Positions 1 to 9,855 of a stretch of 9,855 bases of DNA are shown here, piece by piece; within the stretch, counting starts at the first letter, position 1, and each line of letters begins with the position of its first letter. Made by a program: the position numbers and the translations under genes. This stretch comes from a virus (lineage: Duplodnaviria > Heunggongvirae > Uroviricota > Caudoviricetes): positions 1-9,855 of IMG/VR virus record IMGVR_UViG_2617270976_000011. One strand, written 5' to 3'. Below the pieces are notes generated by a model. The model was not told the origin of the DNA, made no database searches, and saw only the letters and a list, made by a program, of their open reading frames with translations.

Positions 1-996
1 TTATGGACGCATTATGGACATTCCTGACACCGGGTTAAGAGTCACAGCATCTTGTAAGAAATCCGGTGCAAAGTGTGCGTAGGTCATAGTTTGCTGAATG
101 TTAGAATGACCCAGGATGCGCTGCAATGTGATTATGTTACCTCCATTAATTATAAAATGTGTGGCAAATGTATGCCTCAAAACATGTACTGCTTGTCCGT
201 CAGGTAAATCGGGTTTTACTTCCCTGAGAGCGTTACGCACTTTGTAGTAACTGGCATTAAAAAGCCTGCCTGAATTTTTGGTCTTGATCCTTTTAATCAG
301 GTCCTGCGAAACGGGAATTGTCCTGCGCTTTCCGTTTTTAGTTTTCATAAACGTAACCATCTGGTTAATGATGTGTTCAGCTTTCAAATTAGACACTTCA
401 CTCCAGCGTCCACCAGTAGAAAGGCAGACTAGAGTTGCATTTAACTCATCACCATCAAGCATGGATAACAGCCGCGTAATCTCTTCACTGGACAAAAAAG
501 CCATTTCTGTAACAGCTTCACGTAACCGCTTAACCTCACGGAACGGGTTGTGAGAGTGGTATTCACCGGCGTCAATTAACTTGGTGAACATCCCGCTCAT
601 TATTGCCAGATGCCGATTTACGCTGGCTGGTTTTAGACCATCGTTCATCATTACAACTCGATAATCAGTTATCGTTTTCTTTGTTAACTGGTCAGCTCTG
701 GACACTCCCATTTCTGCAAATTTGGCGATTATTGTCGTCAAACGCCCCCGTTCAATATTTCCACGCTCATGTGATTTTCCGTGATATATCCACCATCTGC
801 CTAACAACTCTGTAAGAGTTCGGCGGTCGGCTGGCTTCTCCAGCCACTCTTTGTTGTGGTAGTTAACCAGCACATGACGTTCGAATGCTTGAGCTTCACC
901 TTTAGTTTTAAATTTCCGCCTGATACGTTTTCCATCTGCACCCTGCGGTCTGACGTCCACTTCATAACGACCATCATCGAGCTTTTTAATAGACAT
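1..996 (-). CDS. int: Phage tyrosine integrase, P2 family, complete (331 aa)
   Basis: Full-length minus-strand ORF. The C-terminal catalytic region has HxxR (HVLRHTFATHF) and a conserved Tyr (MTYAHFAPDF). The N-terminus MSIKKLDDGRYEV matches my recollection of P2 Int (337 aa). A GGAGGG Shine-Dalgarno lies just upstream of the ATG at 994-996. Confidence 0.9.
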   Translation of the reverse strand: MSIKKLDDGRYEVDVRPQGADGKRIRRKFKTKGEAQAFERHVLVNYHNKEWLEKPADRRTLTELLGRWWIYHGKSHERGNIERGRLTTIIAKFAEMGVSRADQLTKKTITDYRVVMMNDGLKPASVNRHLAIMSGMFTKLIDAGEYHSHNPFREVKRLREAVTEMAFLSSEEITRLLSMLDGDELNATLVCLSTGGRWSEVSNLKAEHIINQMVTFMKTKNGKRRTIPVSQDLIKRIKTKNSGRLFNASYYKVRNALREVKPDLPDGQAVHVLRHTFATHFIINGGNIITLQRILGHSNIQQTMTYAHFAPDFLQDAVTLNPVSGMSIMRP

Positions 997-1089
997 AAAG
1001 CCCTCCGATGACGCTGTTTACTTCTACTACTTGAAAATTAATGCAATTTTCTTTCGTACATTTACTGCACACATATGCTGAATAAATCG

Positions 1090-1401
1090 TCAGCCAGTCT
1101 TTTGGTCTGAGTGGTGCAAGGTTGTTGAGTCTTGCCCAATGTGCGCGAGCGCCGGGGCTATTTGTCCGCCAGCGGGATCAGTTTCATCAAACATGAACCA
1201 GTCACGGTACTTGCGAAATCTTTCTGGCTTGAAAAATTTCATACCTGCGTCAAAAGACATCTTTACTTTTCCCTGCTCATATCCAGCATAGGTGTTGTAG
1301 TTAATTCCAGTTAATTCAGCAACTTGCTTCCTTGTCATTCTTTCTGATTCCCGAATAAGTGCGAGTTTCTCTGCTTGAGATGTGATTTGTGTATTTGACA
1401 T
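1090..1401 (-). CDS. C: P2 C-type immunity repressor (about 103 aa)
   Basis: The track ORF (1090-1449) contains an internal Met at 1399-1401 that begins MSNTQITSQ, and its C-terminus GQIAPALAHIGQDSTTLHHSDQKTG matches my recollection of P2 C (99 aa). It lies immediately upstream of int on the same strand, as in P2. The 16 extra N-terminal codons in the track ORF are probably not translated. Confidence 0.8.
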   Translation of the reverse strand: MSNTQITSQAEKLALIRESERMTRKQVAELTGINYNTYAGYEQGKVKMSFDAGMKFFKPERFRKYRDWFMFDETDPAGGQIAPALAHIGQDSTTLHHSDQKTG

Positions 1402-1505
1402 GAATTGTCGTATCTCGTAATTTATGTTGTATGCGACACACCAGAACAACGCAGAGCGGCTTCAAATAGCTCTGGTTGAATGGCACCAAAGTTGAGGATA
1501 TCAAA
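1402..1505. promoter_or_regulatory. Immunity/early switch intergenic region between divergent C and cox starts (expected Pc/Pe promoters and repressor operators)
   Basis: 104-bp AT-rich spacer between the divergent start codons. It contains imperfect direct repeats TGTCGTAT (1406-1413) and TGTTGTAT (1425-1432). P2 C repressor is known to bind direct repeats; the specific sites here are not verified. Confidence 0.35.
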
Positions 1506-2690
1506 ATGAGTATTGGATCAGAAATGAATAACGATGTTGGAGAAAAAGTATCTGATCTCACAAAAAGTAAAAAATGTGACATCAAACTTGCAGCCGCACC
1601 GTCGGATTTGCTCTCGAAAGAGGGTTTTGCTCTTTACATCGGTAAGACGCCTCGCGCTGTTGCTGAAATGGCGAAAGCAGGCAAGTTACCAGCCTTTTAT
1701 ATGACGGACCCATTAAAGCCGGGCGGTCATGCTGAGTTATGGATTAACCGGGGCGGTGCTGCGGGGTATATCGCGAAATACATTTCAAAAAACATCGACG
1801 GCTATGCACTGGATGGTCAGCTCGATAACGACACCGGCAGGCCGCTGAAAGACACTGCCGCGGCTGTTACCGCATGGGCGTCAACGTGGCGCATTCCGCA
1901 ATTTAAAACGGTTGGCCTGCCGACAATGGGGGCTTACCGTGAACTACGCAAATTACCTCGCGGCGTCAGCATTGCTGATGAGTTTGACGAACGCGTCGAG
2001 GCTGCACGCGCTGCCGCAGACAGTGGCGATTTTGCGCTGTATATCAGCGCGCAGGGTGGGGCAAATGTCCCGCGCGATTGTCAGACTGTCAGGGTCGCCC
2101 GTAGTCCGTCGGATGAAGTTAACGAGTACGAGGAAGAAGTCGAGAGAGTGGTCGGCATTTACGCGCCGCATCTCGGCGCGCGTCATATTCATATCACCAG
2201 AACGACGGACTGGCGCATTGTTCCGAAAGTGCCGGTCGTTGAGCCTTTGACTTTAAAAAGCGGCATCGCCGCGCCTCGGAGTCCTGTCAATAACTGTGGA
2301 AAGCTTGCCGACGGTGGCGATCCAGTTATGACACCTACGCCGTCTGAGCATGCCGCAGCGGTGCTAAATCTTGTCGATGATGGGGTTATTGCATGGGATG
2401 ACCCCGAAGTTGTGACGGTGCTCAGGAGTGCATTAAAACACGGCGCGCCGCAGCAAAATCGACAGCAAAGAAGCGATGAGCCATTAAAATCGAATCAGAT
2501 AGCACCATCAGGGCGAATGACAAAAGCCGAGAGGGCTCAGATTCCGCGCATCCGCTTCGAACTGGCGCAGCAGGGTATCACGCCGCAGCGGTGGGAACTT
2601 CAGGCGCTGGCTCGTGGCGGAATAGTGGTTTATGGCGAAAAAAGATTTGTATACCCGATAGCGGACGAGTGGGTGAAGCATGAAGGGTGA
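1506..2690 (+). CDS. In-frame deletion fusion: Cox-like HTH N-terminus (about 80 aa) joined to the C-terminal ~310 aa of rolling-circle replication initiator gpA; probably a non-functional remnant
   Basis: The N-terminal segment FALYIGKTPRAVAEMAKAGKLPAFYMTDPLKPGGHAELWINR resembles P2 Cox. It runs directly into GYIAKYISKNIDGY, the paired-tyrosine (Y-x-x-x-Y) motif of phiX174/P2 A-type initiators. Gene B and the N-terminal ~450 aa of A are absent. A GAGGA Shine-Dalgarno precedes the ATG at 1506; the track ORF starts earlier at 1476. Confidence 0.7.
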   Translation: MSIGSEMNNDVGEKVSDLTKSKKCDIKLAAAPSDLLSKEGFALYIGKTPRAVAEMAKAGKLPAFYMTDPLKPGGHAELWINRGGAAGYIAKYISKNIDGYALDGQLDNDTGRPLKDTAAAVTAWASTWRIPQFKTVGLPTMGAYRELRKLPRGVSIADEFDERVEAARAAADSGDFALYISAQGGANVPRDCQTVRVARSPSDEVNEYEEEVERVVGIYAPHLGARHIHITRTTDWRIVPKVPVVEPLTLKSGIAAPRSPVNNCGKLADGGDPVMTPTPSEHAAAVLNLVDDGVIAWDDPEVVTVLRSALKHGAPQQNRQQRSDEPLKSNQIAPSGRMTKAERAQIPRIRFELAQQGITPQRWELQALARGGIVVYGEKRFVYPIADEWVKHEG

Positions 2691-2753
2691 TTTATATCCA
2701 TCTAAATCATGATGTTATGATGGCCGTGTGAGTTCTTTTCTGATTGGGGCTGC

Positions 2754-2928
2754 GTTCGACGGCTTGAAATGTTGTAAATGCTCATAATCTGGTTTAAAGT
2801 GTTTTTATGCCAACGACTAGGAGCATCTCCAGTCATAAATGTTGGCCTCTACAGGCCTTTATATAGTGTTGCTCTTGTACTGCCTTCTCTTTCGAGAGAA
2901 GGTATGTACAAGAAGTAAAGCCTGCGAA
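2754..2928 (+). ncRNA. Candidate retron msr-msd non-coding RNA (boundaries approximate)
   Basis: Non-coding leader directly upstream of, and co-oriented with, the RT gene. Candidate a1 TTCGACGGCTT (2754-2764) is complementary to candidate a2 AAGCCTGCGAA (2918-2928) at 9 of 11 positions, with a G immediately 3' of a1. A strong hairpin at 2876-2910 sits just 5' of a2, where an msd stem would be. Not confirmed by folding or covariance. Confidence 0.3.
2876..2910 (+). repeat. Inverted-repeat hairpin: 8-bp perfect core CCTTCTCT/AGAGAAGG with a TTCG (UUCG) tetraloop, extendable to about 15 pairs with one G-T wobble and a 1-nt bulge
   Basis: Read directly: 2883-2890 CCTTCTCT, loop 2891-2894 TTCG, 2895-2902 AGAGAAGG; outer arms TGTAC (2876-2880) and GTACA (2906-2910). 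Confidence 0.8.
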
Positions 2929-3016
2929 GGGAGGGTGTCTGGGGTGAGGAAAGACTGAGAGTTAAAGCATTCATCTTAGAATCCATTCAACTCAAAAAAC
3001 AAAAGCTCAGCCAACG

Positions 3017-4006
3017 ATGAAACCCCTTAGTCTCGAAAAAGCCTTCAATATTGCATTCTTCGAAAAAGATTCCTTTCAAAACTTTCTTTCGTTTGAACCA
3101 TTTCAACAAACTAAATTTATAACCTTTGATGAAAGGTTAATTGCTGAGCCCACTTCTAAACTAAAAGAGTATCACAAATTCATAAATGAATTTGTTCTTT
3201 CATACTTGAAAGTAAATAAGGATGTTGTGTTTTCGTATAGAAAAGGAAGCAGCACTTATGATGCAGTAAAACTTCACGCCTGTAGTAAGATATTCTTCAA
3301 TACTGATATTAAAAGCTTTTTCCCATCGATAACTCGTGAATATGCACGATCAGTTTTAGTTGATAACTTATCGAACGTTCCCATTTCCGATTTAAATATA
3401 CACTTGGATAAAATTTTAGATTATATTATTATCGATAATTCGTTGCCTGTAGGGTTCCCGACATCACCAGCTTTCAGCAATGCATGTTTATATGACTTTG
3501 ATGTTGAGATGCAGCAATATTGTATTAACCATGAATATATATTCACACGCTATTCAGATGATATTATTATTTCCTCTGAAAATGATGAGGGCTTTGAGAA
3601 TATTCATTCTGTAGTAAGTGACCTGCTGGGTGAGTTTGGGAAGGGACATTTCAAACTAAACTCAGCAAAAACTAAATTGATTAAAAAAGGCAGTAAGATT
3701 AAGCTGCTGGGGATGGTTATTTTACCGTCTCAGATAGTCTCTGTTGATATTAAAATAAAAAGAAAGCTTGAGCATTTGATTCATTTTTATGTAACGGATA
3801 AAGATAAATTTATAGATTCTATAATAAAAGATCCTAAGGTTAAAACTAGCGGATTGAATGATAGTGAGATCTTGGAAAAGGGCGTTAATACAGTTTCTGG
3901 TCTTTTGAATCATATAAACACAATTGATAAGAGTTATCTCGATAAGCTAAAGAGAAAATACGGAAATACGATTGTCGATATGCTTTTTTACAAGAATGTA
4001 AATTAA
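3017..4006 (+). CDS. Reverse transcriptase, retron-type (329 aa)
   Basis: RT motifs are in canonical order: SSTYDAVKLHA (NAxxH-like box, residues 78-88), DIKSFFPSI (motif A, 97-105), LPVGFPTSPAFSN (QG-P-SP box, 143-155), YSDD catalytic box (179-182, nt 3551-3562), LLGMVI (230-235). Small size, no maturase or endonuclease domain, a non-coding structured leader upstream and an effector gene downstream all fit a retron. AT-rich coding sequence. Confidence 0.85.
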   Translation: MKPLSLEKAFNIAFFEKDSFQNFLSFEPFQQTKFITFDERLIAEPTSKLKEYHKFINEFVLSYLKVNKDVVFSYRKGSSTYDAVKLHACSKIFFNTDIKSFFPSITREYARSVLVDNLSNVPISDLNIHLDKILDYIIIDNSLPVGFPTSPAFSNACLYDFDVEMQQYCINHEYIFTRYSDDIIISSENDEGFENIHSVVSDLLGEFGKGHFKLNSAKTKLIKKGSKIKLLGMVILPSQIVSVDIKIKRKLEHLIHFYVTDKDKFIDSIIKDPKVKTSGLNDSEILEKGVNTVSGLLNHINTIDKSYLDKLKRKYGNTIVDMLFYKNVN

Positions 4007-4007
4007 A

Positions 4008-5360
4008 ATGAAAATAAATATTGAGATCTCGAAAATCCAGCATGTTGAACATATGTCATTTGCTATTGATCTTTCTGAAAATAAACTGACTTGCATTGTA
4101 GGAAAGAACGGTGCTGGAAAGACAACGCTAATCAAAGCAATTAAAAATTTACAATCAGCAGATACATTCATAAAGACATCTTCTAGATATATATTCAATC
4201 CTGACAGTAGTATAGTATATAATATTAATGATCAAGATATAGTATATGTCTATGATGAGAATTTGAAGGTAATAGATACTAAGCAAATAATTCCAGCAGA
4301 TATAAAATCCAATCTTTATGTCGAGTTGCCCATTCCTCATGGAATGAGGTTCAATAACTTCCCAACACTTAGTAAAATTGATACTGAACTTAGAAAAAGT
4401 ATTGCGTTTGAAAGCTATAGCGTTCCCGAGGATTTGATAAATATACTCAATGAGGTATATCAGTCTTCTTCTTACAATAATCTTAAAGCATTTTCTGTAA
4501 AAAATGAAATTTTCTATTTCAGATTGAATGAGAACGGAACATACATAAGGGAGGATTACTTTAGCTCGGGTGAGTATTTTATTTTGAATTTATTTAGAAT
4601 GATTGAGCTCAAAAGAAAATTCATTGTCATAGATGAGATAGATATATCACTAGACTCTTCGGCGCAAGTCCATCTTATAGCAGTGCTAAGGAAATATTGT
4701 CAGAGACACTCGGTGAATATTGTATTCACAACACATTCACTTGCTTTAATGCAAACGCTGAATGATGATGAATTGTACTATATGTGCGAAGGTGATGCTG
4801 GAACTACAATTACAAATCGATCATATAATTATATAAAAAGTACGCTTTTTGGATTTAAAGGATGGGATAAGTACATTCTTACTGAAGATGAAGTTCTGCA
4901 AAATTTCTTAGAATATATAATTAATGCTCCTGGGAATGATTACTTCTACGAATATAAAATAATATATGTTGGTGGAGGAACTAATGTCATTGATTTAATG
5001 CGTCGTAATGAGAGAGAGAGCTTTCTCACGACTCAACAGAATGTGATCTCAGTGTTAGACGGAGATCAATTAGGTCAAAGGCATGCTCGAGGTGAAAATA
5101 TTTTATGCATACCTTTCCAAAGCGTTGAGAAGGATTTCTATCAAGCATACGGCCAAGATGAATCGATCCCGAGAGTTACAACTAGAGGTAACGATAAACT
5201 TGATAAGCAAGTTTATCGAGGGGTAGTGAAAACCTATGACAACGGCTGGGATGAAACTAGGATTTTTGAATACCTTGAGAGGTTAAAGCCTGATGAATGT
5301 GAGGCTTTCAGGCAAAAAATTAGAGCATTTCTCCAAAGAAATATTTCGGCAGAGGGTTGA
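4008..5360 (+). CDS. OLD-family ABC-type ATPase with C-terminal TOPRIM-like nuclease domain (450 aa); probable retron effector
   Basis: Walker A GKNGAGKTT (residues 32-40, nt 4101-4127), ABC-signature-like FSSGE (185-189), Walker B FIVIDEID (205-212), H-loop TTHS (241-244). The C-terminal half has TOPRIM-like acidic residues: ILTEDEV (Glu ~293) and VLDGDQ (DxD, 351-353). The ATG lies 1 nt after the RT stop (TAA 4004-4006, ATG 4008-4010). Confidence 0.8.
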   Translation: MKINIEISKIQHVEHMSFAIDLSENKLTCIVGKNGAGKTTLIKAIKNLQSADTFIKTSSRYIFNPDSSIVYNINDQDIVYVYDENLKVIDTKQIIPADIKSNLYVELPIPHGMRFNNFPTLSKIDTELRKSIAFESYSVPEDLINILNEVYQSSSYNNLKAFSVKNEIFYFRLNENGTYIREDYFSSGEYFILNLFRMIELKRKFIVIDEIDISLDSSAQVHLIAVLRKYCQRHSVNIVFTTHSLALMQTLNDDELYYMCEGDAGTTITNRSYNYIKSTLFGFKGWDKYILTEDEVLQNFLEYIINAPGNDYFYEYKIIYVGGGTNVIDLMRRNERESFLTTQQNVISVLDGDQLGQRHARGENILCIPFQSVEKDFYQAYGQDESIPRVTTRGNDKLDKQVYRGVVKTYDNGWDETRIFEYLERLKPDECEAFRQKIRAFLQRNISAEG

Positions 5361-5502
5361 ATATAAGCTTCGGGATCTCATGCCTCTCTATCTGCATGAA
5401 ATTGCATTTGATAATTCCTATTTTTCTCGTGAACTGTGTCACGTTAGGCGCAGCTCAGGGCTCATAATGCATCTGCATTAAAACCGCCCCACGAAGCGGG
5501 CG

Positions 5503-5521
5503 GGCGAGGCGGGGAAAGCAC
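5503..5521. other. Candidate P2-type cos cohesive-end sequence GGCGAGGCGGGGAAAGCAC
   Basis: The 19-mer matches my recollection of the P2 19-nt cohesive end. It sits in a GC-rich non-coding stretch between the cargo cassette and head/tail remnants, which is where cos lies in a P2 prophage (between old and Q). Identification is from memory, not a search. Confidence 0.5.
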
Positions 5522-5663
5522 TGCGCGCTGGCGGTGGTGCTGATTTTATTTTTTCAGCGTCTGAGCGCGTCGTGAAGGCGTTTACTTGGCCTGCTGGGGC
5601 GTTGGTGTGTCTGCGGGATTTTTTGTGCGGTGATGAGCGTGTGAGGGCGTGATGACAGGGTAT

Positions 5664-5685
5664 AAAAAAGCCGCCCGCAGGCGGC
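5664..5685 (-). terminator. Intrinsic terminator-like hairpin for leftward transcription (GCCGCC-TGCG-GGCGGC followed by TTTTTT on the minus strand)
   Basis: Plus strand shows AAAAAA (5664-5669), GCCGCC (5670-5675), CGCA loop, GGCGGC (5680-5685). This lies immediately downstream of the minus-strand ORF stop at 5691-5693. Confidence 0.55.
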
Positions 5686-5690
5686 GATGT

Positions 5691-6209
5691 TCAGCCGTTG
5701 TCAGTGTCCAGTGAGTAGTTTTTAAAGCGGATGACCTCCTGACCGAGCCAGCCGTTTATCTCGCGGATCCTGTCCTGTAGCGGGATAAGCTCATTGCGGA
5801 CAAAGACCTTTGCCACTTTCTCAATATCACCCAGCGACCCGACGTTCTCCGGCTTGCCTCCCATCAACTGAAAGGGGATGCGGTGCGCGTCCAGCAGGTC
5901 AGCGGCGCTGGCTTTTTTGATATTAAAAAAATCGTCCTTCGTTGCGACTTCACTGAGCGGGATAATTTTAATGCCGTCGGCTTTCCCCTGCGGGGCATAG
6001 AGAAACAGATTTTTAAAGTTGTTGCGGCCTTTCGACTTGACCATGTTTTCGCGAATACGGGATGCGTGACCGTTCAGCTCGCGCAGTGATTTTTGTGTTT
6101 CCCGGATATCCCCCGACAGCGACCTGCTCGCTGTACGGATGGATTTAAACGGGCGGGATGCCTGGTCAACAGCCCTGAGCAATACCTGTAATTTTACATT
6201 GTTACTCAT
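5691..6209 (-). CDS. Chimeric ORF (172 aa): N-terminal ~60 aa consistent with the start of tape-measure gene T, fused to a ~110-aa portal-like (gpQ-like) C-terminal segment
   Basis: Its ATG (6207-6209) overlaps the stop of the upstream E' frame (TAA 6203-6205) as ATGAGTAA, the position expected for the start of T after E/E'. The C-terminal part (AHRIPFQLMGG ... NELIPLQDRIREINGWL) resembles a conserved C-terminal portal motif. Its own frame is closed by a TGA 18 codons upstream of the ATG. Confidence 0.45.
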   Translation of the reverse strand: MSNNVKLQVLLRAVDQASRPFKSIRTASRSLSGDIRETQKSLRELNGHASRIRENMVKSKGRNNFKNLFLYAPQGKADGIKIIPLSEVATKDDFFNIKKASAADLLDAHRIPFQLMGGKPENVGSLGDIEKVAKVFVRNELIPLQDRIREINGWLGQEVIRFKNYSLDTDNG

Positions 6210-6491
6210 TCGTGTTTCCGCTTCGCCGGAGCGCCTTTTCGCGCCATGTGATGAGTTCGGTCAGGCTCATGGGATACAGTTCTGATGGCGGCCAGTGAAA
6301 TATCACAGCCACATCCGCCATCAGGTCATCGACCGAGAGATTTTTCGGAAACGTCACTGCACCGAGTTCGGCGACAAAAAACCGACCACCTTACCGGCCA
6401 GCGCCACAAGGTCAGGCAGTTCCAGCGCGGCGACTTCCTGCTCGGTCAGAACAGGTAAAGCTGCTGATAGCGACCGGAGGCCGTGGATTTT
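6203..6491 (-). pseudogene. 5'-truncated remnant of tail assembly chaperone genes E and E+E' (programmed -1 frameshift pair)
   Basis: Minus-strand frame 0 reads ...LTEQEVAALELPDLVALAGKVVGFLSPNSVQ-stop, with no start codon and an in-frame stop at 6492-6494. The -1 frame continues from the slippery site as FFVAELGAVTFPKNLSVDDLMADVAVIFHWPPSELYPMSLTELITWREKALRRSGNTNE-stop. Seven codons after the slip in frame 0 and a 58-codon extension fit the 91-aa and 142-aa sizes I recall for P2 E and E+E'. Confidence 0.5.
6375..6381 (-). other. -1 programmed ribosomal frameshift slippery heptamer T_TTT_TTG
   Basis: Plus strand is CAAAAAA at 6375-6381, i.e. TTTTTTG on the minus strand, positioned in frame as X_XXY_YYZ seven codons before the frame-0 stop. 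I recall the same heptamer as the P2 E/E' frameshift site. Confidence 0.5.
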
Positions 6492-6526
6492 TCACCGCGA
6501 CGGTTAAACACCTTCGCCGGTCGACC

Positions 6527-9256
6527 ATGTGCGAACGGGTGGTCACTGTAGTCGGTGAAGATTTCCGGCTTTCCCAGCAGGATTTCAGCCGCTTTGTGCT
6601 GGATTTTCTGGTGTTCGGTAATGCGTTTCTGGAAAAGCGTTACAGCACCACCGGTAAGGTCATCAGACTGGAAACCTCACCGGCAAAATATACCCGCCGT
6701 GGTGTGGAGGAGGATGTTTACTGGTGGGTGCCGTCCTTCAACGAGCCGACAGCCTTCGCGCCCGGCTCCGTGTTTCACCTGCTGGAGCCGGATATTAATC
6801 AGGAGCTGTACGGCCTGCCGGAATATCTCAGCGCCCTTAACTCTGCCTGGCTGAATGAGTCAGCCACGCTGTTCCGCCGCAAGTATTACGAAAACGGCGC
6901 ACATGCCGGATACATCATGTACGTCACTGATGCCGTGCAGGATCGCAACGATATCGAAATGCTTGAGGGATTCCGCAAGACCAGTGCACAGCTTGCCGTG
7001 ACTGGTCATGCACTTGAAAAGGCTCGGCAGGAAGCCGAAGCCCTTGCCACACAGTTTAAAAACACCGAACGTCCGACCCGTGCTCAGGCGAAAGTGCTGG
7101 AATCCGCAAAGCGTGCGGCGGAGGACTTACAGGCGAAATATAACCGCCTGACGGATTCCGTTAAACGCCAGCAGCGGGAACTGGCCGCTGTGGGAATTAA
7201 TACCCGCAATCTTGCACATGATGAGCAGGGACTGAAAAACCGTATCAGTGAAACCACCGCACAGCTTAACCGTCAGCGTGATGCGCTGGCGCGTGTCAGT
7301 GCGCAACAGGCAAAACTTAACGCAGTCAAACAGCGTTATCAGGCCGGAAAGGAACTGGCCGGAAATATGGCCTCAGTAGGCGCTGCCGGTGTGGGGATTG
7401 CGGCGGCGGGAACGATGGCCGGAGTTAAATTGCTGATGCCCGGTTATGAGTTTGCGCAGAAAAACTCAGAATTGCAGGCCGTGCTCGGAGTGGCAAAAGA
7501 CTCCGCCGAAATGACCGCACTCCGCAAGCAGGCGCGCCAGCTCGGCGACAATACCGCAGCCTCGGCAGATGATGCAGCCGGTGCACAGATAATCATTGCG
7601 AAAGCGGGTGGAGATGCTGCGGCTATTCAGGCAGCAACGCCGGTCACACTGAATATGGCACTGGCAAACCAGCGGTCGATGGAAGAAAACGCGCAATTGT
7701 TGCTGGGGACTAAGGCATCCTTTCAACTGTCAAATGATGATGTCAGCCATGTGGGCGACGTGTTGTCGGCAACGATGAATAAGTCGGCGGCTGATTTTCA
7801 GGGACTCAGTGATGCACTGACTTACCTCGGCCCGGTTGCGAGGACGGCAGGTGTAAGTATTGAGCAGGCAGCGGCCATGACCGGTGTGCTGCATGACAAT
7901 AACATCAGGGGGTCAATGGCGGGTACGGGTAGCAGTGCCGTTGTCACCCGATTACAGGCACCGACTGGAAAAGCATGGGATGCACTCAAAGAGCTTGGCG
8001 TTAAAACCTCGGACAAAAAGGGAAATATGCGTCCGTTGTTCACCATTCTGAAAGAGATTCAGGCCAGCTTTGATAAGCATAAGCTGGGAACGTCTCAGAA
8101 GGGGGAATACCTTAAAACCATTTTTGGTGAGGAAGCCCTGAAATCAGCGAACGTTTTACTGGCAGCGGCAGCAAGCGGAAAACTGGATACGCTGACCGCC
8201 ACGCTGAAAGCCTCGGACGGTAAAACGGAAGAGCTGGTTAAAATCATGCAGGATAACCTCGGCGGTGACTTTAAGGAGTTTCAGTCCGCTTATGAGGCGG
8301 TGGGGACTGACCTGTTTGACCAGCAGGAAGGCGCACTGCGTAAGCTCACTCAGACGGCCACAAAGTATGTGTTAAAACTCGACGGCTGGATCCAGAAAAA
8401 CAAATCACTGGCGTCAACCATCGGCCTCATTGTCGGTGGCGCGCTGGCGCTTATTGGCATCATCGGTGCCATTGGTCTTGTCGCCTGGCCGGTTATCACC
8501 GGCATCAATGCCATTATCGCGGCAGCAGGCGCAATGGGGGCAATCTTCACGACGGTTAGCAGTGCTGTTATGACGGCCATCGGGGCGATTAGCTGGCCGG
8601 TTGTGGCCGTGGTGGCCGCCATTGTCGCCGGGGCGTTGCTTATCCGTAAATACTGGGAGCCTGTCAGCGCATTCTTTGGCGGTGTGGTGGAAGGGCTGAA
8701 AGCGGCATTTGCGCCGGTGGGGGAACTGTTCACGCCACTGAAGCCGGTGTTTGACTGGCTGGGTGAAAAGTTACAGGCCGTGTGGCAGTGGTTTAAAAAC
8801 CTGATTGCCCCGGTCAAAGCCACCCAGGACACCCTGAACCGTTGCCGTGACACGGGCGTTATGTTCGGGCAGGCACTGGCTGACGCGCTGATGCTGCCGC
8901 TTAATGCGTTCAACAAACTGCGCAGCGGTATTGACTGGGTACTGGAAAAACTCGGTGTTATCAACAAAGAGTCAGACACACTTGACCAGACCGCCGCAAG
9001 GACTCATGCCGCCACGTATGGCACCGGTGGTTATATTCCGGCGACCAGCTCTTATGCTGGCTATCAGGCTTATCAGCCGGTCACGGCACCGGCTGGCCGC
9101 TCTTATGTGGACCAGAGTAAAAACGAATATCACATCAACCTGACGGGCGGTACTGCGCCGGGGACACAGCTCGACCGCCAGTTACAGGATGCGCTCGAAA
9201 AATACGAGCGGGATAAACGTGCGCGCGCCCGTGCCAGCATGATGCATGACGGTTAA
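6527..9256 (+). CDS. Chimeric long ORF (909 aa): N-terminal ~150-aa portal-like segment fused in frame to ~745 aa of phage tail tape-measure protein (gpT-like)
   Basis: From about residue 160 onward the protein has a long coiled-coil region, a conserved tape-measure core (ASFQLSNDDVSHVGDVLSATMNKSAADFQGLSDALTYLGPVARTAGVSIEQAAAMTGVLHDNN) and Gly/Ala/Ile-rich hydrophobic segments. The first ~150 residues (e.g. FRRKYYENGAHAGYIMYVTDAVQDRNDIEMLEG) are unlike tape measure and look portal-like. No Shine-Dalgarno precedes the ATG, and the frame is open back to 6299 without a start. Confidence 0.75.
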   Translation: MCERVVTVVGEDFRLSQQDFSRFVLDFLVFGNAFLEKRYSTTGKVIRLETSPAKYTRRGVEEDVYWWVPSFNEPTAFAPGSVFHLLEPDINQELYGLPEYLSALNSAWLNESATLFRRKYYENGAHAGYIMYVTDAVQDRNDIEMLEGFRKTSAQLAVTGHALEKARQEAEALATQFKNTERPTRAQAKVLESAKRAAEDLQAKYNRLTDSVKRQQRELAAVGINTRNLAHDEQGLKNRISETTAQLNRQRDALARVSAQQAKLNAVKQRYQAGKELAGNMASVGAAGVGIAAAGTMAGVKLLMPGYEFAQKNSELQAVLGVAKDSAEMTALRKQARQLGDNTAASADDAAGAQIIIAKAGGDAAAIQAATPVTLNMALANQRSMEENAQLLLGTKASFQLSNDDVSHVGDVLSATMNKSAADFQGLSDALTYLGPVARTAGVSIEQAAAMTGVLHDNNIRGSMAGTGSSAVVTRLQAPTGKAWDALKELGVKTSDKKGNMRPLFTILKEIQASFDKHKLGTSQKGEYLKTIFGEEALKSANVLLAAAASGKLDTLTATLKASDGKTEELVKIMQDNLGGDFKEFQSAYEAVGTDLFDQQEGALRKLTQTATKYVLKLDGWIQKNKSLASTIGLIVGGALALIGIIGAIGLVAWPVITGINAIIAAAGAMGAIFTTVSSAVMTAIGAISWPVVAVVAAIVAGALLIRKYWEPVSAFFGGVVEGLKAAFAPVGELFTPLKPVFDWLGEKLQAVWQWFKNLIAPVKATQDTLNRCRDTGVMFGQALADALMLPLNAFNKLRSGIDWVLEKLGVINKESDTLDQTAARTHAATYGTGGYIPATSSYAGYQAYQPVTAPAGRSYVDQSKNEYHINLTGGTAPGTQLDRQLQDALEKYERDKRARARASMMHDG

Positions 9257-9270
9257 GGAGGTGACGAAAA

Positions 9271-9555
9271 ATGATGCTCGCGTTAGGTATGTTTGTTTTT
9301 ATGCGCCAGACGCTGCCACACCAGACCATGCAGCGTGAATCAGATTATCGCTGGCCGTCAAATTCCCGTACCGGTCGTGCAGATATTTACACGGAAACAC
9401 CGGTCAGAGTGTCAGGCTTTAAGCGCGTCATAGACGAGCAGGACTGGACAATCACTAAGGTGACACATTTTCTGAATAATAGCGGCTTCACGACGTCCTT
9501 AGAGCTTGAGGTCAGGCTTTCTGATGTGGAGTACGAAACAGAAGATTATGAGTGA
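9271..9555 (+). CDS. Truncated tail protein remnant (94 aa): gpU-like N-terminus, possibly fused to a gpD-like C-terminus
   Basis: A strong AAGGAGGTGA Shine-Dalgarno (9255-9264) precedes the ATG, 15 nt after the T stop, which is where U sits in the P2 FETUD operon. At 94 aa it is far shorter than U (about 159 aa) or D (about 387 aa), so an internal deletion is likely. The U/D fusion point is inferred, not demonstrated. Confidence 0.45.
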   Translation: MMLALGMFVFMRQTLPHQTMQRESDYRWPSNSRTGRADIYTETPVRVSGFKRVIDEQDWTITKVTHFLNNSGFTTSLELEVRLSDVEYETEDYE

Positions 9556-9636
9556 TGTATTTTGTTTATCTGTTTGTTTTATAAGGATAAATTAACTAAA
9601 ATGGCAACATCAACAAAACCGGAAGAGGTGCTCGCG

Positions 9637-9855
9637 ATGTTTCATTGTCCTTTATGCCAGCATGCCGCACATGCGCGTACAAGCCGCTATATCACTGACA
9701 CGACAAAAGAGCGTTATCACCAGTGTCAGAACGTGAATTGCAGCGCCACGTTCATAACTTATGAGTCGGTACAGCGATACATCGTGAAGCCGGGAGAAGT
9801 CCACGCCGTAAGGCCGCACCCGTTGCCGTCAGGGCAGCAAATTATGTGGATGTAA
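9637..9855 (+). CDS. ogr: Ogr late-gene transcriptional activator, C4 zinc-finger (72 aa)
   Basis: Sequence MFHCPLCQHAAHARTSRYITDTTKERYHQCQNVNCSATFITYESVQRYIVKPGEVHAVRPHPLPSGQQIMWM matches my recollection of P2 Ogr, including the CxxC...CxxxxC zinc-finger cysteines. The track ORF (from 9562) carries 25 extra N-terminal codons that are probably not translated; 9601 is an alternative start. Confidence 0.85.
   Translation: MFHCPLCQHAAHARTSRYITDTTKERYHQCQNVNCSATFITYESVQRYIVKPGEVHAVRPHPLPSGQQIMWM

Follow-up and report, generated by a model that had tools for sequence, protein, structure and literature searches.

In phage lambda (G/GT) and in tailed phages more generally, two tail-assembly chaperones are made from one start codon by means of a -1 slip near the end of a short ORF, and the genes for the pair have the tail tube gene on one side and the tape-measure gene on the other (Xu, Hendrix and Duda, 2004, as cited in PMC3091744). 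For phage P2, the same source describes a -1 shift at TTTTTTG which gives an E protein of 91 aa and an E+E' protein of 142 aa, crediting the frameshift to Christie et al. (2002), and, in citing Xu et al. (2004), it lists P2 itself as being without downstream secondary structure. In an intact P2-type phage, ribosomes on E reach T TTT TTG and a minority of them slip back one base, so that the 142-residue gpE+E' is made instead of the 91-residue gpE, with the E' stop overlapping the T start. The E. coli dnaX signal (A AAA AAG) is likewise a homopolymeric heptamer of the form X XXY YYZ ending in G, and it is accompanied by a downstream hairpin and by an upstream Shine-Dalgarno-like element. The spacing between this element and the dnaX heptamer is about 10 nt. 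E/E' is not known to share sequence similarity with lambda G/GT.

The stretch of DNA analyzed here (9,855 nt, hereafter the window) is a whole decayed P2-like prophage, reaching from int to ogr and lying between pflA and pflB of E. coli. Within this prophage we examined a -1 frameshift signal and the E/E' sequence around it, which we consider very probably to be a non-functional relic of the P2 tail-assembly-chaperone recoding cassette in a deleted and partly inverted P2-like E. coli prophage. The frameshift cassette itself is already known from phage P2 and nothing in the feature is new; its most fitting place is among the pseudogene fragments, as a piece of a known recoding gene in a known kind of decaying prophage. 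The coordinates of the cassette, the gene fragments, the fusions, and the junctions are collected in Table 1.

Table 1. Features of the prophage remnant, in window coordinates, with the matching P2 positions or other basis
Feature	Window	Strand	P2 position or basis
int and C, distant homologues (67-70% identity)	1..1168		blastn vs P2
Cox::A in-frame fusion, 394 aa from ATG 1506	1506..2690	+	ends at natural stop
Gene A, 3' part	1744..2672		29358..30286
Retron reverse transcriptase	3017..4006	+	PADLOC RT_I-B, E = 6.5e-110
Retron ATPase-Toprim protein	4008..5360	+	PADLOC ATPase-Toprim_I-B, E = 1.6e-179
cos and 3' end of Q	5474..6055		cosR, then 1..551
T'::'Q fusion ORF, 172 aa	5691..6209	-	ends at natural Q stop
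E/E'/T block, reversed	6054..6449		20005..19610
Inversion junction J1	6054..6055		Q nt 551 + reverse-complemented T nt 20005; AA dinucleotide common to both
E' extension, -1 frame, 57 sense codons + TAA 6204..6202	6202..6375	-	translation, PF06528
Gene E 3' remnant, codons 61-91 + TGA 6356..6354, no start codon	6354..6449	-	blastn vs 19610..19705
Slippery site of the P2-type E gene, T TTT TTG	6375..6381	-	19678..19684
Endolysin gene K internal fragment, 132 nt, reversed, out of frame with E	6443..6574	-	7254..7123
'Q::T fusion ORF, 909 aa	6527..9256	+	ends at natural T stop
Portal gene Q internal fragment, reversed, codons ~93-224, 98.2% identity	6567..6964	+	947..550
Inversion junction J4, reciprocal of J1	6963..6964		Q nt 550 + T nt 20004; TT dinucleotide common to both
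Rest of T and start of U	6963..9375		20004..22416
U'::'D in-frame fusion, 94 aa	9271..9555	+	ends at natural stop
End of D and ogr	9369..9855		23768..24254

The slippery heptamer and its match to P2 gene E

Direct reading and translation place TTTTTTG in frame on the minus strand, where the E frame reads through it as GGT TTT TTG (context GGT CGG TTT TTT GTC), just as a preliminary description of this DNA had placed it. Past the heptamer, frame 0 reads TCG CCG AAC TCG GTG CAG TGA, where the stop comes seventh, after six sense codons. The -1 frame runs from GTC (6375) through 57 sense codons (58 with the stop) to a TAA within ATGAGTAA, which also holds the ATG (6209..6207) of the next ORF (172 codons); both the distance to the frame-0 stop and the 58-codon -1 frame ending in a stop that overlaps an ATG agree with that earlier reading.

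The heptamer taken alone is not significant, as TTTTTTG occurs 7 times in the window compared to 4.1 +/- 2.0 times expected in shuffles, and a chance heptamer was rejected only through the match of the surrounding 396 nt to P2. In blastn against the P2 record (NC_001895), the 396-nt block is the reverse complement of P2 19610..20005, with 393 of 396 positions identical (99.2%) and the three differences located at window 6307, 6135, and 6124. This block starts within gene E at codon 61 and continues through the whole of E' into the tape-measure gene T, of which it includes 52 codons from the 5' end. Conversion of the P2 annotation (E, 19430..19705; E+E', a joined CDS, 19430..19857; T from 19850) to window coordinates within the block (window = 26059 - P2) led to the same heptamer, stops, and ATG, and the -1 frameshift site annotated at P2 nt 19685 corresponds to window 6374.

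Both reading frames align to P2 E and E' with 100% amino-acid identity. The 82-residue frameshift product is identical to residues 61-142 of P2 gpE+E' (82/82), and the translation of the E remnant, LTEQEVAALELPDLVALAGKVVGFLSPNSVQ followed by the stop, is identical to residues 61-91 of P2 gpE; the frameshift product, through its E' part, matches Pfam PF06528 (Phage_P2_GpE, E = 4e-22). The tail-chaperone frameshift arrangement that the preliminary description had seen in the two frames, and had proposed to check by alignment with E and E+E' of P2, is therefore borne out, with neither frame failing to align. The span assigned to the E/E' remnant (6203-6491) stood only in part: the sequence is E-derived at 6449 and below, but 6450..6491 belongs to the endolysin gene K fragment. 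The end coordinate of 6491 is explained by the K fragment, because it stays open in the E frame as far as the stop at 6494..6492.

The cassette and its P2 counterpart are alike in the heptamer, its phasing, the distance to the 0-frame stop, the E' frame, and the way in which the E' stop overlaps the T start, and the part that remains has 99.2% DNA identity and 100% protein identity to P2. In contrast to P2, the window is without E codons 1-60, the E start codon, FI, FII, and pF, its T gene is cut after codon 52, and the orientation of the block is opposite to that of the remaining prophage. The general position of a chaperone pair between the tail tube and tape-measure genes described for tailed phages (PMC3091744) is likewise only half retained, the tube gene being deleted. 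On this comparison, the feature descends from the P2 E/E+E' cassette and, with regard to the signal alone, should work like it.

A downstream stimulatory RNA structure, which had been suggested as a further check, was not found by folding. Segments of 85, 45, and 60 nt downstream of the heptamer formed folds no more stable than those of dinucleotide-shuffled sequences (z = -0.67, -0.21, and +0.59, respectively), and no Rfam family was found in the window; the lack of a downstream fold agrees with the literature statement for P2 and differs from dnaX. Just 5' of the heptamer, an 8-pair, GU-rich hairpin (6402..6381, minus strand) is of marginal stability relative to shuffles (-10.5 kcal/mol, z = -2.06); it lies within coding sequence, and a scan flagged it as terminator-like. 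This hairpin holds a Shine-Dalgarno-like AAGGTGG, which lies only 4 nt upstream of the heptamer, closer than the upstream element of dnaX. Material for covariation analysis of the hairpin was sought in 80 viral loci, 79 of which are 99-100% identical in protein and so offer no variation to use.

The preliminary description called the signal preserved, and the heptamer is indeed letter-perfect. TTTTTTG is present in all 80 viral loci encoding full-length E+E' (80/80), with an identical 30-nt context in 74 of these. The window block differs from the 80 viral contigs at 3-10 positions in 396 nt, which is the normal range among such full-length copies, and it is in this respect that preservation in the sense of selection did not hold. 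With approximately 3 differences in 396 nt, a 7-nt site would be hit with a chance of about 5% and would escape in about 95% of cases; because the differences are so few, an intact heptamer is simply the null expectation. We infer that intactness reflects the youth of the fragment rather than its maintenance, consistent with neutral retention. That the block has instead been kept by selection, for example as a domesticated element, is very improbable. Its amino-acid sequence is unchanged relative to P2, and a second, independent remnant in E. coli E24377A keeps the same block, heptamer, and E' ORF, as selection would have it; but this degree of intactness is expected at the observed divergence, which full-length copies also show among themselves, the upstream two thirds of E has been deleted, and the neighboring and clearly dead K and Q fragments, at 97-98% identity, have diverged to a comparable extent.

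Truncation and expression of the cassette

Of the chaperone region, only E codons 61-91 (its 3' third), the whole of E', and T codons 1-52 survive. The previously noted absence of the E 5' end and start codon is confirmed, as codons 1-60 (P2 19430..19609) are absent, the E-derived DNA ends at 6449 (codon 61), and no usable start is present. The E frame is open only from 6491, after the K-derived stop, and no ATG was found in the frame from this position on. Of the GTG and TTG codons in this frame, the earliest is a GTG located 9 codons before the slippery TTT, and a peptide begun there would be 17 residues long. That the neighboring K fragment might supply a start codon was considered and rejected, since K is out of frame with E and, when read in the E frame, contributes 14 open codons after the stop at 6494..6492.

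The surroundings of the gene are equally incomplete. The window does not hold a complete 91-codon E with its own start, nor does the remnant occupy a place between FII and a full-length T inside the Ogr-activated F operon: FI and FII are absent, and T is split after codon 52 by the inversion. The late promoters given in the P2 record (pF, pV, and pO/pP) all lie in deleted segments when the P2 map is compared by blastn. A promoter consensus scan of 5600..7200 yielded 1 match compared to 0.8 expected, approximately 750 nt upstream. The cassette thus appears to keep its signal and nothing that would bring ribosomes to the heptamer in frame. With no start codon, no E ribosome-binding site, no late promoter, FI and FII missing, and T split, frameshifting cannot yield a chaperone here, and the cassette is probably not expressed. 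Minus-strand read-through transcription from upstream may be possible, and pflB, beyond ogr, points that way in one assembly.

A different kind of expression can be imagined for the last 51 codons of E', which begin with a GTG at 6357 and are annotated by gene callers as a 'GpE family phage tail protein'. This 51-aa ORF is identical to WP_000143830.1 in E. coli AHM21C2872I and E24377A, is also called as a gene in one of the three assemblies sharing the arrangement, carries the whole PF06528 domain, and ends in a stop overlapping the ATG of the 172-aa T'::'Q ORF; it might be made alone, perhaps coupled to T'::'Q, leaving the remnant partly expressed. We regard this as highly unlikely. The same 51-codon ORF is called as a gene in complete prophages too, where frameshifting is known to reach it, and in intact P2 it is expressed as a frameshift extension of E (PMC3091744). 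Furthermore, the vicinity has no promoter-like site, none of the Ogr-dependent late promoters has survived, and the partners of such a protein (full-length T, tube, and sheath) are absent or split. Christie and co-workers are also said to have reported, in 2002, that the E' ORF of P2 has no initiation site.

As the relic demonstrates, dead DNA can contain a perfect recoding signal, and annotation pipelines should therefore leave the 51-codon 'GpE family' ORF uncalled at this locus and annotate no frameshift gene. Beyond annotation, the importance of the feature is small. On the opposite strand, a GTG-initiated ORF of 70 codons (6295..6507, +) runs antisense over the E remnant and spans the junction of K with E; it is a gene call in the NCBI assembly, has no Pfam match, and is probably spurious.

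The inversion and its junctions

The use of the frameshift block as an internal marker of orientation, proposed in the preliminary description as the feature that reveals an inversion, is well founded. Window 6054..6964 is flipped relative both to P2 and to the colinear E24377A remnant, and junctions J1 and J4 are exactly reciprocal. Read as an orientation marker, the block proves that the portal and tape-measure genes of this decaying P2-like prophage were split by an inversion. The inverted segment corresponds to P2 ~551..20004 and, through internal deletion, has lost most of its content; the 396-nt block was turned together with the K and Q remnants. Within the inverted part, K is joined with E at junction J2 (6447..6449), where a CTG/CAG microhomology is found.

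The inversion split T and Q into two reciprocal in-frame fusions because the two genes are encoded on opposite strands and both breaks fell at the same codon phase. T'::'Q consists of the first 52 codons of T (6209..6054) in frame with the last ~120 codons of Q, and has a weak Phage_portal match at residues 78-155. 'Q::T consists of 14 codons antisense to the K fragment, followed by Q codons 93-224 and T codons 53-815, and matches PhageMin_Tail (E = 2e-44). In-frame fusion as a sign of selection was considered and rejected, given that 3 of the 4 same-strand gene-gene junctions are in frame (p ~ 0.11), a number compatible with chance.

A scan of 5,426 complete E. coli genomes found neither J1 nor J2, and the GTDB species representatives, scanned for J2 alone, did not have that junction either. 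Such rarity might be taken to mean that the inverted arrangement is an assembly artefact and that the remnant is not really truncated or inverted, but this is extremely unlikely, considering that the exact 172-aa T'::'Q protein was found on three contigs, one of them an NCBI contig (GCA_000704325.1, 189 kb) and two from Logan assemblies of different runs (SRR1186598 and ERR14760663). The window is 100% identical over its 9,855 nt to GCA_000704325.1 and SRR1186598, both of which have all five rearrangement junctions; the ERR14760663 contig, which has J1-J4 and ends before J5, is 99.98% identical, with 1 nt difference in the 4,056 nt that it holds. The exact reciprocity of the two inversion junctions likewise speaks against an artefact. 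The flank of the remnant is 100% identical to E. coli chromosomes. The arrangement is rare but real.

The prophage remnant and its relatives

The remnant is recognizable as P2-like (Peduovirus) by int, C, cox, A, cos, Q, T, U, D, and ogr, and its colinearity with P2 is broken only by the 6054..6964 inversion. Full-length ORFs have been kept by the prophage for the type I-B retron genes, the integrase, the repressor homologue, and ogr.

A related remnant in E24377A (NC_009801.1, 1000694..1016866) occupies the same site between pflB and pflA. Its E gene is truncated at P2 19611 compared to 19610-19613 in the window, PGAP marks it as a pseudogene missing the N-terminus, and the heptamer and E' ORF are intact in both remnants. 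Whereas the window is inverted and includes a K fragment, E24377A is colinear, with E joined directly to Q nt 753 and no K fragment. In addition, an IS21-family element is inserted in T of E24377A, both U and D have remained intact, and other cargo is present at the tin/old position.

The E breakpoints of the two remnants (window 6447..6449, and 9395/9396 of the stretch fetched for E24377A) coincide within 0-2 nt with different partners, and this coincidence may reflect a hotspot or shared history. The E24377A breakpoint junction is a singleton among the 5,426 complete genomes. A non-random origin of the rearrangements has its basis in these two remnants, with their different partners, both ending at P2 19610-19613; in this scenario E codon 61 would be a recurrent breakpoint and the exactly reciprocal inversion, with its 2-bp AA/TT overlap, would have been made by a site-specific enzyme acting on pseudo-sites, a candidate being the Cin-like serine invertase found in related prophages. 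We think it improbable. An origin by serine invertase was disfavored, as the flanks, examined by eye, are unlike hix/gix/cix sites. If the non-random scenario were true, P2-like phages would have a recombination hotspot at the frameshift region of E.

In AHM21C2872I, the same site is occupied by what appears to be a complete P2-like prophage; the stretch fetched covers int through T and ends inside T. Window 1..6055 differs from this prophage by 6 mismatches, and as the exact parent of the remnant AHM21C2872I was rejected for all but the left arm, since identity is 97-98% to the right of the breakpoint and 89% in T. The step in identity falls at the inversion breakpoint, with 0 of 553 nt mismatched in Q at 5503..6055 compared to 10 of 398 at 6567..6964, and the first mismatch to the right of the breakpoint lies 36 nt from the junction. 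This pattern suggests that the left arm may have been exchanged by homologous recombination after the inversion, the replacement being unable to pass the inversion. Between its tail fibre and tail sheath genes, the AHM21C2872I prophage has a gene annotated as a 'recombinase family protein' (44216..44809 of the fetched stretch).

Another P2-like prophage, in E. coli YJR_complete (NZ_CM146016.1 1..12222), has a truncated tail sheath gene adjoining an inverted endolysin gene, and the scrambled region also has a truncated terminase gene and a portal gene. The window is therefore not alone among P2-like prophages in having inversions and deletions. As an intermediate on the way to the window arrangement, the YJR_complete prophage was rejected, its rearrangement being a different one.

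Finally, the window contains a type I-B retron of two full-length ORFs (3017..5360, +) at the position of the P2 tin/old cargo. No msr/msd RNA of the retron was found at the Rfam gathering score in the window. Both retron ORFs are still full length although most of the phage structural genes have been deleted.
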